Positions 4,680 through 25,311 of a stretch of 25,311 nucleotides of DNA are shown here, piece by piece. A program made the position numbers and the translations under genes. The notes under the pieces were generated by a model that made no database searches, was not told the origin of the DNA, and saw only the letters and a list, made by a program, of their open reading frames with translations. The first letter of the stretch is position 1. Every line of letters starts with the position of its first letter. Origin of the DNA: a virus (lineage: Duplodnaviria; Caudoviricetes); IMG/VR virus record IMGVR_UViG_3300032329_000228, positions 1 to 25,311 of that record; one strand, 5' to 3'.

Positions 4680-5039
4680 ATGACCAAAGCAGAAGATTTT
4701 GTAAGCAAGGCGCTGTTCGACCGGGACGCCGCGCACATCGCTCACTGGAAGACCAAGAGCTTTGCGGAGCACAAGGCCCTGAACGAGTTTTACGACGAGC
4801 TGCTCGAGCTCATTGATGGCTTTGTGGAGCAGTACCAGGGCTACTACGGCAACCGCATGGAGATCAAGCGCACCGGTGGCGACGTGGACAACATCCGCGA
4901 CGAGCTCGAGATGCGCGCTGAGTGGATCGAGCGCATGCGCTACGAGATCTGCGATCGCGATGAGACACCGCTGCAAAACACGATTGACGAGATCGTTCGC
5001 CTGTACCAGCACACCCAATACATGCTGACTCTGGAGTAA
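4680..5039 (+). CDS. Dps/ferritin-like four-helix protein (DUF5856-like)
   Basis: AHIAHW..KSFAEHKALNEFYDELLELIDGFVE keeps the Dps H-W...H..L.E.Y......D...E pattern; SD GAGG at 4670-4673. Confidence 0.7.
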   Translation: MTKAEDFVSKALFDRDAAHIAHWKTKSFAEHKALNEFYDELLELIDGFVEQYQGYYGNRMEIKRTGGDVDNIRDELEMRAEWIERMRYEICDRDETPLQNTIDEIVRLYQHTQYMLTLE

Positions 5040-5042
5040 GCC

Positions 5043-6860
5043 ATGGAGCAGACCTACATCGAAGAGACACCCGTCAAGCGCCGCTGGGCGGCAGCTCTAG
5101 CCGATGCCCTGCGCACGGCCCGCGACTACGGCAACAAGGTCCAGGTTCCAGAAGGCGCGCCCCTTGTTGGCGGTCTGAAGATGGGCGACATGTTTCTTGG
5201 CCAGGCGCCTGAAGGAGCCGACAGGCTAGCCTATGGTGAACGAATGACATCGGGCCGGGGCCAAACGCTTCAGATTCGACCTGAGACGCTAGACCTGGCC
5301 ATGCTGATGCCGATGCCTGGCGGCACGACATCGAGCATGGCAGCCAAGGCCGGGGCCCTGCGCAAGAACGTCAAGAACATCGATCGCGCTCGCCTGGGAC
5401 AGCTGATCCCTGAAGCTGAGGCAGACATCGCTCGCTCATACAAGGCGGACCCCCGCCTGCGCGGTGATGGCACAGTGCCCCGCGCTGAGGTGGAGACAGC
5501 GCTCGAGAACCGGGCGCGCTACCGCGACGAGCCCCAGACGCTGCCCAAAAAACCCACCGAAATGACTGACCAGGACTGGGCAGCCTTTGGTGCGCAGCAC
5601 GGTGTGGACATGAGCCAGAGCCCCATGCAGTCGCTGGGGATCTCGGACCTGACCACGCGCAAAGAGATCATGGTTCCTGGTGGCCTTGAGGGCAAGTTCA
5701 CGATCCCCGATCTGTTCCGCATCAAGGCCAACAACTTCGATCCCAACGCACTGCCCCAGGAGACGCATAACGCGCTCATGCAGAAGTTCCTGCGCACCTA
5801 TGAGCGCCAGGGCCCGCATGACCCCGTGGACACGTTCAACGACCTCAACTTTGCGTTGATGTCACCCAACGCGCCCCTGACCCCTAACGAGTTCCTGGCA
5901 CAGCGCTTCCGCGTGCGTGACATGGACGAGCTCAAAGCATTGGCCAACCGCGTGGGCGAGCCTGGCTTGGCGGCCACGATGGACGCTGAGGCCGGTGTCG
6001 GTGCAGCTGCTCGAGGTGGCTTAGGCGTCAAGGGCACGGCCAACATCGAGCACCAGGCACGCCTGGCGCAGCTGCTGCGTGACAAGCCTGAGATGTTCCG
6101 GCCACAGGACGGTGAGTCCCTGCGCGAAGTGGGCTGGCGCGTGATGAACCAAGTGCCTGGCCTGTCAGTGAAAACCGCTTCGCTTGGCGTGCCATGGACA
6201 GATCTCGGCAAGGCCAACACCAGCGCGGTGGATCTGCACATGATCCGCAACAACTACCAGCGCCTCATGCAGGAAGACCCTCAGTTCGCTGAGCGCGTGC
6301 AGTCCCTGGTGGCCAGCAATGCTCGCAAAGCGCCCATGAGCGAGGAAGAGGCAGCCATTAGCGTGATCTCTTCACACCCCGAGTGGAAGTACCGCATGAA
6401 GGGTGGGGAGCTCAATCCCAACGTGCCTGCCGAGCTCGCGCCTGAGAAGCTTGCCTATGAGCCCGACAAGTTCACGGTGGCCTCACCGTACTACCGCCGC
6501 ATCATGGACTACGTCGATGAGTCACGGGGCGCGAACCCCTCCATCGAGCTCTTCCCTGAGCAGTGGCGCCTATGGGATCGCTACCGCGGCCGCGTCGAAC
6601 CGCATGAAATGGCGCACCCCGACTGGCGCAAGCTTCCGCGCCAATCGTTCAACGAGCTGCAGGATTCCCTGACTGCACACAAAGAGCTGGGCTACACCGG
6701 CACTGCGCCGATCAAAGACGGTGGCGACTGGCGCCGCCTGTACTACGGCTTCACCGGCAACGAGGCTCCAGACCCCAACAAGGTCGTGATCAACGAAGCA
6801 AAGAAGGCTGCCATCTCCGCATTGCGCAGCAAGTCCAAAAAGGAAGAGGAAGAGAAATGA
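5043..6860 (+). CDS. Large head-module protein with a C-terminal HhH-GPD DNA glycosylase/AP lyase-like domain
   Basis: FALMSPN, HhH motif VPGLSVKTAS (K377), AVDLHMIR (D397) and terminal helix EQWRLWD match the layout of Nth/Ogg-type enzymes; the N-terminal ~250 aa are unrecognised. Confidence 0.6.
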   Translation: MEQTYIEETPVKRRWAAALADALRTARDYGNKVQVPEGAPLVGGLKMGDMFLGQAPEGADRLAYGERMTSGRGQTLQIRPETLDLAMLMPMPGGTTSSMAAKAGALRKNVKNIDRARLGQLIPEAEADIARSYKADPRLRGDGTVPRAEVETALENRARYRDEPQTLPKKPTEMTDQDWAAFGAQHGVDMSQSPMQSLGISDLTTRKEIMVPGGLEGKFTIPDLFRIKANNFDPNALPQETHNALMQKFLRTYERQGPHDPVDTFNDLNFALMSPNAPLTPNEFLAQRFRVRDMDELKALANRVGEPGLAATMDAEAGVGAAARGGLGVKGTANIEHQARLAQLLRDKPEMFRPQDGESLREVGWRVMNQVPGLSVKTASLGVPWTDLGKANTSAVDLHMIRNNYQRLMQEDPQFAERVQSLVASNARKAPMSEEEAAISVISSHPEWKYRMKGGELNPNVPAELAPEKLAYEPDKFTVASPYYRRIMDYVDESRGANPSIELFPEQWRLWDRYRGRVEPHEMAHPDWRKLPRQSFNELQDSLTAHKELGYTGTAPIKDGGDWRRLYYGFTGNEAPDPNKVVINEAKKAAISALRSKSKKEEEEK

Positions 6861-7180
6861 CCAGACGCCGCTGGATTCAGGATCGAAAGACGGGTGAGCT
6901 GATCGAAGTCACTCAAGACTATCAACCCGAGATGCGTACCGACTCCGGTGCGCTGTGGGGTGACCGATCGTATGAAGGTATGCAAGCGCCCGATGGGACC
7001 GATATTTCTTCACGCAGCAAGCATCGCGAGTACATGAAGGCCAAGGGCCTGACCACGATGGACGACTTCAAAGATTCTTGGGCGAAAGCCAAAGAAAGCC
7101 GCGAGCGGTACATGACCGAAGGCGGCTCATTCAAGCGTGCCGACATAGAGCGCGCAATTTACAAACTTCAAAACAGGTGA
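6857..7180 (+). CDS. Conserved phage head-module hypothetical protein
   Basis: APDGTDISSRSKHREYMKAKG resembles the small gene commonly found before the scaffold in such phages; ATGA overlap with the upstream gene. Confidence 0.7.
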   Translation: MTRRRWIQDRKTGELIEVTQDYQPEMRTDSGALWGDRSYEGMQAPDGTDISSRSKHREYMKAKGLTTMDDFKDSWAKAKESRERYMTEGGSFKRADIERAIYKLQNR

Positions 7181-7186
7181 TCACCA

Positions 7187-8323
7187 ATGAGCGAACCCAC
7201 GACGACGATGCGCGATGCCCTTGAGGCCGCGTTCAAGGAGGCCGACGAGCCTTTGCCACAAGACAACTCCGCGCCCGCGGCCGTAGAAACCGACTTGGCT
7301 GTTGCAGCCGAAGCGGTCAATACCACACCAGAGGCTCAGGAGGCGAGCCAGGACCTGAATGACCTTGCGCAAGACAAACCCCTGGACGAGAAGCCTCGCG
7401 ATGAGCAGGGCAAATTCAAGCCCAAGGACGCAACGCAAGAGCCGCTCGATCAAGGTATGCAACCAGGGCCAAAATCTGGGCCCAAGCAGCAGGCCGATCG
7501 AGCTCCGCAAGCCTGGCGTCCCGAGGTGCGCGAGCACTGGGCCCAGTTGCCCGAAACCGTCCGCTCTGAGATCCAGCGCCGCGAAGTTGAACATGCCAGG
7601 TTCATCCAGGAATCGTCAGAGGCGCGTAAGAACTACGACGCCATGCTCAAGACGATCGCCCCCTATGAGGCGTTCATCAAAGCCGAGAACAGCAACCCGA
7701 TCCAGGCGATCGACAACCTGATGAGCACGGCAGCACGCCTGCGCACAGGCACGGCGCCTGAGCTCGCCAACCTGGTGGCCGGCATTGTCAATCAGTACGG
7801 CACGGGCCGCTTTGGCAACCAGTTCATTGAGATGCTGGACAGTGCCCTTGCTGGCCAGGCCCCGCGCCAGGACCCACAGCAAGCAGCCATCGAGCAGGTG
7901 CTGAATCAGCGCCTGGCGCCCATGCAGAACATGCTGACGCAGTTCCAGCAGGCGCAGCTGGTGCAACAGCAACAGGTCGCGCAGGCCGCACAGAGCGAGG
8001 TGCAATCCTTCCTCGACCAGGCAGAGTTTGGCAACGACGTGCGCGAGGACATGGCCGACTTGCTCGAGGCCGCACAGCGCAAAGGGCAAAACCTGTCCCT
8101 GGCCGATGCGTACAAGAAGGCTTGCCTGCTCAACGACAACGTGCGTGCGGTCATCACACAGCGCATGAAAGCGAAGGGCGCGCAGCAAACCACCCAAGCA
8201 GCCCAACGCGCCAGGTCCGCTGCCGTGCAGGTTTCAGGAGCTGCACCGGTCGGCGCCATGCGCCAAGATCCCACCGACGTGCGCTCAGCGATTGAGGCAG
8301 CTATTGTGATGTCGTCAAGGTGA
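7187..8323 (+). CDS. Capsid scaffolding protein
   Basis: Immediately upstream of the capsid gene; acidic disordered N-terminus, RDEQGKF motif, APQAW, coiled coils, C-terminal helix DVRSAIEAA. Confidence 0.75.
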   Translation: MSEPTTTMRDALEAAFKEADEPLPQDNSAPAAVETDLAVAAEAVNTTPEAQEASQDLNDLAQDKPLDEKPRDEQGKFKPKDATQEPLDQGMQPGPKSGPKQQADRAPQAWRPEVREHWAQLPETVRSEIQRREVEHARFIQESSEARKNYDAMLKTIAPYEAFIKAENSNPIQAIDNLMSTAARLRTGTAPELANLVAGIVNQYGTGRFGNQFIEMLDSALAGQAPRQDPQQAAIEQVLNQRLAPMQNMLTQFQQAQLVQQQQVAQAAQSEVQSFLDQAEFGNDVREDMADLLEAAQRKGQNLSLADAYKKACLLNDNVRAVITQRMKAKGAQQTTQAAQRARSAAVQVSGAAPVGAMRQDPTDVRSAIEAAIVMSSR

Positions 8324-8332
8324 TTGCATAAT
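8304..8332 (+). promoter_or_regulatory. Sigma70-like promoter for the capsid gene
   Basis: TTGTGA (8304-8309), 17-bp spacer, CATAAT (8327-8332); overlaps the palindrome GTGATT-gcat-AATCAC (8320-8335). Confidence 0.45.
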
Positions 8333-8510
8333 CACACCATGAGGACGGGAAACTGTCCTCTGGTGTGCCCAAGCACCCCAGCCACCGCATGACTCGTTAG
8401 GAGACGCATCGGCGTCCCACCTACGGCAAAGACGGACTGAGATCGGTTCGCGTAGGCGCATCTGAAAAAGGTGAGCGAAAGCTCGTTTTAACTCAGATGA
8501 AGGAGTCATC
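8333..8510 (+). ncRNA. Structured RNA leader of the major capsid gene (candidate cis-regulator)
   Basis: Five predicted helices and two GAAA tetraloops; the closing stem ATGACTC (8389-8395)/GAGTCAT (8503-8509) overlaps the SD AAGGAG. Folded by eye. Confidence 0.6.
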
Positions 8511-9482
8511 ATGTCTTTTCCAAATGTCAGTGACATCGTCGCAACGACGATCCAGTCACGCACCCGTCAGATTGCTGACAACGTAACTAAAAACAACGCC
8601 CTGTTGTCCCGCCTTAACCAGCGCGGCAACGTCAAGACCATCTCCGGTGGTAACGTAATTTTTGAAGAACTCTCATTCGCTGAAAACGCGAACGGCGGTT
8701 TCTACTCTGGTTACGACTTGCTGCCTGTGGCTGCTCAAGACGTGATCAGCGCTGCTGAATACCAAATCAAGCAGTACGCTGTGCCCGTCGTGATGTCTGG
8801 CCTCGAGATGTTGCAGAACAGCGGCAAAGAGCAATTCATCGACTTGCTCGAGTCTCGCTTGAACGTGGCCGAGTCCACCATGGTCAACCAGTTGGCCCAG
8901 TCCATCTACTCTGACGGTACTGGCTCTGGCGGTAAGGAAGTCACCGGCTTGAACGCCGCTGTGCCTTCTGATCCTACGACTGGCACTTACGGTGGCATCA
9001 ACCGCGCAACTTGGACCTTCTGGCGCTCCAAGCTGTACGACTTTAGCGCTCAAAGCGTGACCCCTAGCGCAACCACCATTCAGGCTGGTTTGAACTCTTT
9101 GTGGTCTTCGCTGGTTCGCGGTACTGATCGTCCCGACTTGATCGTGTTGGACAACAACTACTGGACTTACTACATGGGCAGCTTGCAGGCTCAGCAGCGT
9201 TTCACGTCTCCTGAGACTGGCAACCTTGGCTTCCCCACGTTGAAGTTCATGGATGCTGACGTTGTGCTCGACGGTGGTATCGGTGGCTATTGCCCTGCCA
9301 ACACCGGCTTCATGCTCAACAGCAAGTACATCAAGTGGCGCCCTCACAAGGACCGCAACATGGTCCCATTGAGCCCCAACCGCCGCTACGCCATTAACCA
9401 AGACGCTGAAGTTCAGATCTTGGCATGGGCCGGTAACCTGACCACTTCTGGTGCTCAGTTCCAAGGTCGTATCCAAAACTAA
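8511..9482 (+). CDS. Major capsid protein
   Basis: 323 aa; ATTIQSR..IADNVTKNNALL..L...G...SGG..I N-terminus typical of a podovirus HK97-fold capsid family; strong SD; high-expression codon bias (TCT/GGT/ACT). Confidence 0.92.
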   Translation: MSFPNVSDIVATTIQSRTRQIADNVTKNNALLSRLNQRGNVKTISGGNVIFEELSFAENANGGFYSGYDLLPVAAQDVISAAEYQIKQYAVPVVMSGLEMLQNSGKEQFIDLLESRLNVAESTMVNQLAQSIYSDGTGSGGKEVTGLNAAVPSDPTTGTYGGINRATWTFWRSKLYDFSAQSVTPSATTIQAGLNSLWSSLVRGTDRPDLIVLDNNYWTYYMGSLQAQQRFTSPETGNLGFPTLKFMDADVVLDGGIGGYCPANTGFMLNSKYIKWRPHKDRNMVPLSPNRRYAINQDAEVQILAWAGNLTTSGAQFQGRIQN

Positions 9483-9514
9483 TTAGTTTGGTGGACCGTC
9501 GTGGGTCAACCTTT

Positions 9515-9554
9515 CCCGAGGGACTGGGTTGACCCACAACCCCTCGGGTTTTTT
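9515..9554 (+). terminator. Intrinsic terminator after the capsid gene, with a competing upstream helix
   Basis: CCCGAGGG (9515-9522)/CCCTCGGG (9541-9548) followed by T6. Confidence 0.6.
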
Positions 9555-9568
9555 GAAGGAGAAATGAA

Positions 9569-9754
9569 ATGGCAGTAACTTATGGTGCAGCAGTGTCTGC
9601 AAACGCCCCCGCAGTCGTTGATACCAATGCCTCTCAAGGCACTGGTGCAGTAAGCGAAGGCATCGGTTTGATCGGCGCCGATGGCGTCAGCATCGGTGGT
9701 TCCCGTATTGGCGGCTCCCCTGGTACTGATCTCAAGTTCGAGACAAACGTGTAA
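9569..9754 (+). CDS. Small Gly/Ala-rich protein, possible capsid decoration protein
   Basis: SD GAAGGAG; follows the capsid gene and shares its codon bias; function inferred from position only. Confidence 0.6.
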   Translation: MAVTYGAAVSANAPAVVDTNASQGTGAVSEGIGLIGADGVSIGGSRIGGSPGTDLKFETNV

Positions 9755-24711: not shown

Positions 24712-24740
24712 AAGGCCCTGATTACTCAGGGCCTTTTTTT
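24712..24740 (+). terminator. Rho-independent terminator of the late/lysis operon
   Basis: AAGGCCCTGA-ttac-TCAGGGCCTT followed by a T-run. Confidence 0.85.
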
Positions 24741-24748
24741 CATGAACC

Positions 24749-24795
24749 GACTGTTAATCCGCAGGTCCCTGGTTCGAGCCCAGGTCGGGGAGCCA
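24749..24795 (+). other. 3' half of tRNA-Asn(GTT), att core; not a complete tRNA
   Basis: GACTGTTAATCCG (anticodon GTT), T-arm CCTGGTTCGAGCCCAGG, acceptor strand TCGGGGA-G-CCA; no D-arm or 5' acceptor strand upstream. Confidence 0.92.
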
Positions 24796-24864: not shown

Positions 24865-25311
24865 TTAAAAGGAAACTCGCTCGGCGGCCTTGGCCAGGTG
24901 CTCGGGCGAGAGGTGCGCATACCGCTGAACCATCAGCGGCGTGTGCCACCCACCCAGCTCCTGCAACACCGACAGCGCCGTGCCTTCCATGGCATGCCAG
25001 CTGGCCCAGGTGTGCCGCAGGTCATGGAACCTGCACCAGGGCACGCCAGCGCGCTTCGTGGCCGCCTTCCAGGCGCTACCCCACACCTCGGTGAGATCGC
25101 CCCACACGCGGCCCGTGCGCGGTCCTTCGATCGACTCCAGGATCGCTTTGGCGTGCGGGTTGAGCGGGACCAGCAGGCGGCTGCCTGCCTTCGTCTCGTC
25201 AGCCTGGACCACCACCATGCCGCGCTCCAGGTTCACGTTCTCCCAGGTCATGCCAAACAGGTTGGCGCGGCGCATGCCGGTGAGCAGTGCCATGCGCACC
25301 ACCTTGCGGTA
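24865..25311 (-). CDS. int: Tyrosine recombinase/integrase, C-terminal part (5' end outside the window)
   Basis: Catalytic motifs TGMR, TK, FHDLRHT, LGGW and RYAHL; next to attP. Confidence 0.95.
   Translation of the reverse strand, partial: YRKVVRMALLTGMRRANLFGMTWENVNLERGMVVVQADETKAGSRLLVPLNPHAKAILESIEGPRTGRVWGDLTEVWGSAWKAATKRAGVPWCRFHDLRHTWASWHAMEGTALSVLQELGGWHTPLMVQRYAHLSPEHLAKAAERVSF

Follow-up and report, generated by a model that had tools for sequence, protein, structure and literature searches.

A conserved two-state leader RNA ahead of the capsid gene of Mx8-like podoviruses and its possible role as a protein-triggered translational switch

Introduction

Few descriptions exist of how tailed phages balance capsid against scaffold, and the one that we found is for P22. 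The stretch of DNA analysed here (the window, 25,311 nt) is one phage record, 71% complete, with genes for terminase, portal, a 107-aa protein, a 378-aa putative scaffold, the major capsid protein, tail and lysis proteins and a fragment of an integrase. The capsid gene (8511-9482, + strand; phrog_9953, NF033394 capsid_maj_Podo) is the one that the leader in the gap would control. Its product resembles those of the cultured phages BUCT555 (72% identity), Myxococcus phage Mx8 (65%) and Mx9 (63%), and the Mx8 lineage is described, in the accessible part of PMC10386132, as podoviruses related to P22 in structural genes. An earlier note, made from the letters of the window alone, had suggested that the gap encodes an RNA which hides the capsid gene's ribosome-binding site and sets the scaffold:capsid ratio, or else a structural RNA.

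Structure and position of the capsid leader

At 187 nt, the gap between the putative scaffold and the capsid gene, noted earlier as one of the longest, in fact exceeds all others among the 25 gaps that separate called genes of the window, and every stem drawn in the earlier note was found in its place. The four-way junction that they form is the minimum-energy fold of 8325-8525 (-79.4 kcal/mol, z -5.26), none of 200 shuffles being as stable, and the reverse strand folds less stably (z -3.24). On the + strand the first elements are hairpin P1 (8333-8367), made of a variable-sequence stem (8341-8360) and an extension (8333-8339/8361-8367), and hairpin P2 (8365-8376), which is GTGC/GCAC with a variable loop and exclusive with the P1 extension. 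They are followed by the anti-SD strand (8389-8395), which in the junction pairs with 8503-8509, by stem P3, by P4 (8420-8456; CCTACG/CGTAGG and CGGACT/GGTTCG) and by the P5 arm (8459-8499). The last segment (8500-8513) holds the Shine-Dalgarno sequence (SD) AAGGAG at 8500-8505 and the capsid start codon at 8511-8513.

Two features were missed in the earlier note, a sigma70-like promoter and a second, exclusive fold built on invariant bases. The promoter (8304-8332, + strand) has a -35 element TTGTGA at 8304-8309, in the end of the upstream gene, and a -10 element CATAAT at 8327-8332. One such site was found against 0.7 expected, which is weak alone; related leaders repeat a -10-like hexamer and, where A8339 stands, a purine in 91 of 97 cases, the other six not being parsed. 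We infer a transcription start at 8339 (+ strand), the same place at which an HNH gene, discussed below, has its start codon without an SD in L008, L031, L064 and L909. Because the promoter ends at 8332, positions 8333-8338 are probably upstream of the start. The P1 extension would require a read-through RNA, in which it would disrupt P2. Contigs from RNA runs of four studies span the leader and the capsid gene and begin at 8348, 8355 and 8372, none reaching upstream of 8348; this is a weak hint, since contigs cannot show starts and the upstream gene is more divergent. A leaderless open reading frame of 17 codons at 8339 was considered and rejected, its frame not being conserved.

No family of Rfam 15, with riboswitches, ribozymes, GP20-a/b and Mu-gpT-DE among those covered, reached its gathering threshold in the window, in agreement with the novelty supposed earlier; by E-value there were four sub-threshold hits only, and 20 loci of other leader classes gave no match to Rfam 15. 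Look-alikes of TPP, glycine, guanidine-III, SAH and ZTP riboswitches, twister, group I P7 and T-box, judged by what we take to be their characteristic features, fail on the order of elements and on Rfam.

Conservation in related phages

Capsid searches and two independent DNA patterns gave 97 distinct leaders of Mx8-like podoviruses, which we call class A (one leader without a parsed start was left out), with a mean identity of 63%, 35 nt of the upstream gene included. Viral hits of the 5' pattern lie 136-155 nt before a capsid start in 116 of 119 cases, two of the others being at contig ends and one a chance match. Looser DNA patterns gave mostly chance matches (capsid-encoding loci in 3 of 120, in 0 of 119 from the single metagenome scan and in 2 of 61 from genomes), and one further loose pattern had a single useful match, inside an HNH gene. 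The two genome loci lie in bins labelled Polaromonas and Sericytochromatia, which are weak hints of the host.

In tests that compared each strand's own partner with permuted partners, and that ignore relatedness, permuted partners did as well in 0 of 5000 permutations for the anti-SD:SD helix, in 0 of 5000 for each of P5 and P3, and in 37 of 5000 for outer P4. The junction as a whole had a covariation score of 0.195 on a 30-row MAFFT alignment, against 0.105 when shuffled. This alignment mis-registers the anti-SD helix (33% of cells paired), and support for that helix therefore comes from the permutation test and from the pairing of 3-4 SD bases in 88 of 97 leaders. Among the hairpins, the inner pairs of P1 change on both sides in 8 of 8 cases; P2 is identical in 95 of 97 leaders and stays paired through G-U in both variants. 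The P1 extension keeps its pairing at bases upstream of the predicted start, with a compensated U-A in five leaders. A GTGTGCC:GGCGCAT helix, whose 5' side is invariant, is also possible.

The permutation results indicate that the SD-hiding junction is under selection. An RNA that hides the capsid SD, as proposed earlier, is thus conserved, covarying and located directly 5' of the capsid gene. The other suggestion, a free structural RNA, is unlikely because the + strand has no terminator-like site and the last helix includes the SD. In the reading with a hidden SD the leader may set the scaffold:capsid ratio.

A second, exclusive fold

Four segments that are invariant or nearly so in class A, CAGCCACCG, GGAG, CCACC and CGGACTG, are left unexplained by the junction, in which CAGCCACCG is unpaired, and are explained by a second fold. 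This is a single arm, made of invariant bases, with two 3x1 loops in which CCA stands opposite A (CCA/A loops). In the outer loop (8379-8439, + strand) CAG 8379-8381 pairs with CTG 8437-8439, CCA 8382-8384 lies opposite A8436, and CCG 8385-8387 pairs with CGG 8433-8435. Both of its strands are invariant in 97 of 97 leaders; as its helices never vary, they are without covariation in class A, and the case for them is made by invariance together with the recurrence of the loop elsewhere. The inner loop sits on P3 (8399-8422, + strand), with AGG 8399-8401 paired to CCT 8420-8422 and A8402 opposite CCA 8417-8419. The P3 stem itself (8403-8407/8412-8416) is paired in all 97 leaders, in seven paired types. 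At 8399:8422, the inner-loop pair, 96 of 97 leaders retain pairing (A-U in 84, G-C in 11, C-G in one), and 78 of 97 do so at the rival junction pair 8422:8454, a pattern of compensation that favours the loop pair over its competitor.

With the anti-SD strand enclosed in the loop arm, and with both halves of P4, a competitor for both loops, taken up by it, the two folds are mutually exclusive, while P5 fits both. Of the earlier interpretation, a conserved SD-hiding RNA absent from Rfam has been upheld; the junction, however, is only one of two folds. Judged by sequence comparison, this leader is a conserved element in a fixed position with two mutually exclusive folds and a loop that recurs throughout the lineage.

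The loop in other capsid leaders

Among 129 distinct capsid-upstream regions, the 119 of 60-420 nt fell into 38 classes by DNA similarity, and loops were counted in the 37 non-A classes, with a single representative per class, the class of discovery being left out. They contain 39 CCA/A loops, against 3.3 in shuffles and one on the reverse strand, and all other 3x1 loops together are not enriched (338 versus 352). At least one CCA/A loop is present in 19 of the 37 classes and two or more in 13. Nine different combinations of closing pairs occur, so it is the loop itself that is conserved: across classes its four bases are retained and the closing pairs are free. Within 200 nt upstream of the capsid start the density is 0.53-0.66 loops per 100 nt, versus about 0.05 over flanking genes; around the scaffold start, in up to 32 class representatives, it is 0-0.03 loops per 50 nt. 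In the window no second strong copy was found ahead of other genes. The loops are located 45-190 nt from the start codon, and one leader (L666) has three tandem stand-alone copies.

When UCA and GCA are allowed beside CCA, low-cost loops occur in 25 of 37 classes versus 2 of 74 coding controls. The low-cost loop was not found in the other 12 classes, BUCT555 and Mx8 among them, nor in relatives with gaps of 9-32 nt, so this control is not universal. Mx9 and Mx8 do carry the CCA/A loop, Mx8 twice, at costs of 3.1 and 6.8. The BUCT555 locus (L771, 1660-1800) has a near-consensus promoter and a capsid leader with a CAA bulge in place of CCA/A, possibly a variant of the loop module. The literature covered, which leaves most subscription papers outside, yielded no description of the leader RNA or of the CCA/A loop. 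We regard the element as real and conserved, a capsid leader of two states whose loop module recurs throughout the lineage, and as apparently uncatalogued, the candidate DNAVirus_5613 discussed below being known by description only.

Opening of the ribosome site

In the computed folds the ribosome-binding site (RBS) is cheaper to open once the loops have formed. When both loops were forced in 45 class-A leaders the median opening cost fell from 9.8 to 5.2 kcal/mol, by more than 1 in 42 of 45, and in the window leader from 6.9 to 3.6 kcal/mol. The outer loop frees the SD by its geometry, and the class-A calculation is therefore not independent proof. In the nearest-neighbour model the loop fold itself costs a median of 9.6 kcal/mol in these 45 leaders. 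In the window the junction stays the minimum up to a bonus of 4 kcal per loop; at 5 kcal the inner loop alone forms and the SD is still paired. Read-through and promoter transcripts do not differ in the model (in the window, 6.9 versus 7.1 in one calculation and 9.9 versus 9.8 in another).

In the non-A classes, which allow a fairer comparison, 21 of 61 CCA/A loops are pre-formed, versus 2 of 278 decoys. Conditional ones open the RBS by at least 1.5 kcal in 9 of 25 cases versus 7 of 73 decoys (p 6e-4, the loops not being independent). Commonly one loop serves as an anchor and a second, conditional one is in competition with a helix that hides the SD; several classes have pre-formed loops only, with RBS opening unchanged.

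We propose that 8339-8513 is the 5' leader of the capsid mRNA and would act as a two-state translational switch. On its own it would fold into the four-way junction with the SD hidden (OFF). Binding of both CCA/A loops by a protein, likely one of head assembly and most likely free scaffold, would stabilise the alternative arm, which traps the anti-SD strand and leaves the SD free (ON). The loop arm would be complete at 8439, before its competitors at 8445-8509 are transcribed, and could be captured. The purpose would be to match capsid synthesis to the scaffold available. To this reading, a protein-triggered ON switch acting through CCA/A loops with scaffold as the most likely binder, we give a probability of about 0.5.

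HNH endonuclease alleles

In L008, L031, L064, L066, L071 and L909/L910 an HNH gene replaces the whole leader between scaffold and capsid. It begins at the predicted transcription start, without an SD, in four of four cases with upstream DNA, and ends at the capsid SD. The gene matches phrog_1035 (E 1e-7) and has the motif VDH..LHV..NL, which we take to be that of the HNH family. It is present or absent at the same site among phages with 97% identical capsid. Two features of homing endonucleases were looked for and found, the HNH motif and a conserved site that is occupied in some phages only, which suggests a putative homing endonuclease.

The capsid-linked HNH genes (L008, L031, L064, L066, L909; 52-88% identical) have both loops in their coding sequence in 5 of 5 cases, one pre-formed with changing flanks and one conditional; they are one related family, so these are not five events. 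HNH relatives elsewhere have two loops in 1 of 37 cases and a pre-formed loop in 0 of 37. The conditional loop lowers RBS opening in three of the four tested. As both loops sit in its coding sequence, the invader would preserve the control when it takes over the site, and its decayed remnant would become a leader. Class 1 (L022, L024, L026, L062, L077, L692 and others) is an example: the last 130 nt of these leaders are decayed HNH 3' ends with a readable remnant PLQGTNVC, and 11 of 17 match the HNH 3' end in DNA, which no other class does. Class 1 and class 8, two of the 37 non-A classes, keep in 19 of 19 leaders an exclusive helix that reaches the SD, in four compensated versions. On a quick capsid tree without L008 and L031 the leader classes are intermingled, with L064 among class-A phages. 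L137 has an opposite-strand gene with an HNH motif about 40-640 nt upstream of the leader, between scaffold and promoter, and its leader is intact.

Tentatively, and with rather more doubt than confidence, these alleles could be joined with the switch into one picture: Mx8-like podoviruses would couple capsid synthesis to free scaffold through an activating four-base operator, CCA opposite A, needed so much that it is written into the reading frame of an invading homing endonuclease and left behind on its decay as a new leader. If this is true, repeated HNH invasion and domestication would help to explain why dozens of unrelated leaders share only the CCA/A loop. In the HNH alleles a selfish gene carries the regulatory RNA of its host gene in its coding sequence and would later become a non-coding leader, which is a concrete route to new cis-regulatory RNAs. 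A four-base, lineage-wide RNA module that is predicted to activate is testable, since the Myxococcus phages Mx8 and Mx9, both cultured, carry it, and synthetic circuits could profit from an ON switch that is small, portable and responsive to a protein.

Candidate binders

Four complete relatives (G001, G002, G003 and G005) and Mx8 have only packaging and virion genes in common at E 0.001, a comparison in which one shared gene could be missed, and a conserved phage binder should therefore be one of these. No zinc-finger or other non-virion gene beyond those for packaging is common to the five. Free scaffold is probably the binder; in its favour, activation by it would give a balanced feedback, and the scaffold of P22 is reported to regulate translation. 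The gene upstream of the leader (7187-8323, + strand) is itself a putative scaffold, by its position between portal and capsid and by a weak similarity: it is a homologue of Mx8 p47, has no match in Pfam or PHROG, and its nearest named Atlas cluster is PF09306 at 0.88, a look-alike that is weak and no more than a lead. Similar short helices stand at its two ends (MRDALEAAF and VRSAIEAAI), both kept lineage-wide, and possibly these are two capsid-binding helices. A second candidate is the basic protein of 107 aa (6857-7180, + strand), homologue of Mx8 p46, whose structure model is poor (pTM 0.35) and gave no fold match or family. Nothing singles out scaffold over capsid, the 107-aa protein or a host protein.

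Alternative explanations

The loops could instead be the operator of a repressor, with excess capsid or scaffold binding the array and lowering translation, and the junction secondary. Many copies being pre-formed (21 of 61) would suit this, and negative feedback is the usual logic of homeostasis. Autoregulation by the P22 scaffold, known from the accessible part of 10.1101/2022.12.13.520362, where it is reported to regulate translation by acting on its own synthesis, also speaks for it. The likeness between P22 and the capsid leader is a feedback of head assembly at the level of translation. They differ in that the leader element precedes the capsid gene, not the scaffold's own start, and in its predicted sign, which is activation. 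In P22 the autoregulation is a repression. The distance of the loops from the start codon (45-190 nt) and the fact that, where loops compete with a helix, that helix hides the SD stand against a repressor, and we consider it unlikely. Slightly less credence is given to a switch without any trans factor, in which CCA/A would be an architectural module resembling a C-loop and folding kinetics or the choice of transcript would decide, as in T4 gene e. C-loops alter helical twist (PMC8570644, accessible part), and the pairing of the P1 extension upstream of the predicted start, with its compensated U-A in five leaders, fits such a view; however, predicted RBS opening in the window is equal for both transcript forms, and the tandem copies of L666 and the retention of the loops in the HNH gene suit a binding site better.

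Another role of the loop array might be to tether scaffold on the capsid mRNA for co-translational nucleation of procapsids, with the effect on the SD secondary. Loops only ahead of the capsid gene, and classes with several pre-formed copies and unaffected RBS opening, would agree with tethering, but class A, classes 1 and 8 and the HNH alleles all retain exclusive helices that hide the SD, and this makes it quite improbable. A small-molecule riboswitch appears more improbable again: class A does recall one, with about 35 bases invariant and a layout of aptamer and expression platform, but the controlled gene is structural, there is no Rfam match even by E-value, and the four loop bases alone are kept across classes while closing pairs are free. 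Least credible of all is a phage small RNA that would open the leader by pairing (anti-antisense), even if the unpaired CCA could seed such pairing. In a complement search that covered lengths of at least 10 nt, no conserved complement was found in the window and two complete genomes; the best outside complements, of 11-12 nt, fall at different places of the leader in the window and in the two complete relatives, and matches to CGGTGGCTG in the window are at chance level.

Comparison with known systems

The protein-triggered ON switch proposed here has its closest parallel in Com of phage Mu, a protein whose binding to an RNA element, upstream of a structure that inhibits translation, uncovers the start signals of mom (PMC6483171, accessible part). 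The RBS is sequestered in a stem of the unbound capsid-leader RNA too, and binding of a phage protein is likewise proposed to raise translation. Com, however, is a dedicated zinc finger of 62 aa that acts on one hairpin of a modification gene, whereas here 2-4 copies of a 3x1 loop precede a capsid gene. A Com-like CCCC zinc-finger gene was not found among the genes common to the four complete relatives and Mx8, and the 107-aa protein has no cysteine motif.

In T4 the RBS of e, soc, 49 and I-TevI is hidden in long transcripts and free in those from late promoters (PMC3014915, accessible part). Both systems have an internal promoter, here a predicted one, in a hairpin ahead of a late gene, and an SD-hiding helix. 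In T4, however, the short transcript is without the anti-SD strand, whereas here that strand (8389-8395) lies 50 nt downstream of the predicted start. The capsid leader is therefore not a case of the gene e mechanism, since the anti-SD would be in both transcripts, which are predicted to be equally closed. The C-loop is an asymmetric loop of hairpin stems whose long strand usually starts with C and which can bind protein, such as VIRP1 in a viroid (accessible parts of PMC9516175 and PMC8570644). The 3x1 CCA/A loop is likewise asymmetric with a leading C, a resemblance in outline only; the C-loop descriptions in those parts include neither its strict lettering with unconstrained closing pairs nor a role in an RBS switch.

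Fremin et al. 2023 (PMC10690425, accessible part) list DNAVirus_5613, a candidate structured RNA found upstream of 52 capsid_maj_Podo genes at a distance of at most 25 bp, genes of the same NCBIfam family as the capsid gene behind the leader. It is 86 nt long, flagged as palindromic, with one covarying base, and comes from wetland and peat samples; the comparison is by this description only. Its table rows, as far as accessible, describe no function or loop, and motif words of the leader are absent from the three supplementary files searched for this comparison. The words capsid and head are absent from the main text of Weinberg 2017.

Other features of the window

After the capsid stop (9482-9569) strong hairpins end in a T run, a possible partial terminator that would put capsid above the downstream genes. 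Between portal and head genes (4680-6860) there are a DUF5856/Dps-like gene and a gene of 605 aa with integrase-repeat-like units, of which Mx8 has none there. A structured GC-rich gap of 183 nt (891-1073) lies ahead of a DUF3310 gene and the terminase. At the other end, after a terminator-like hairpin (24712-24740) and adjoining the minus-strand integrase (24865-25302), 24748-24795 is the 3' part of a tRNA-like sequence, presumably Asn-like, in which ARAGORN found no full gene; this end of the window is likely the attP of a temperate phage.
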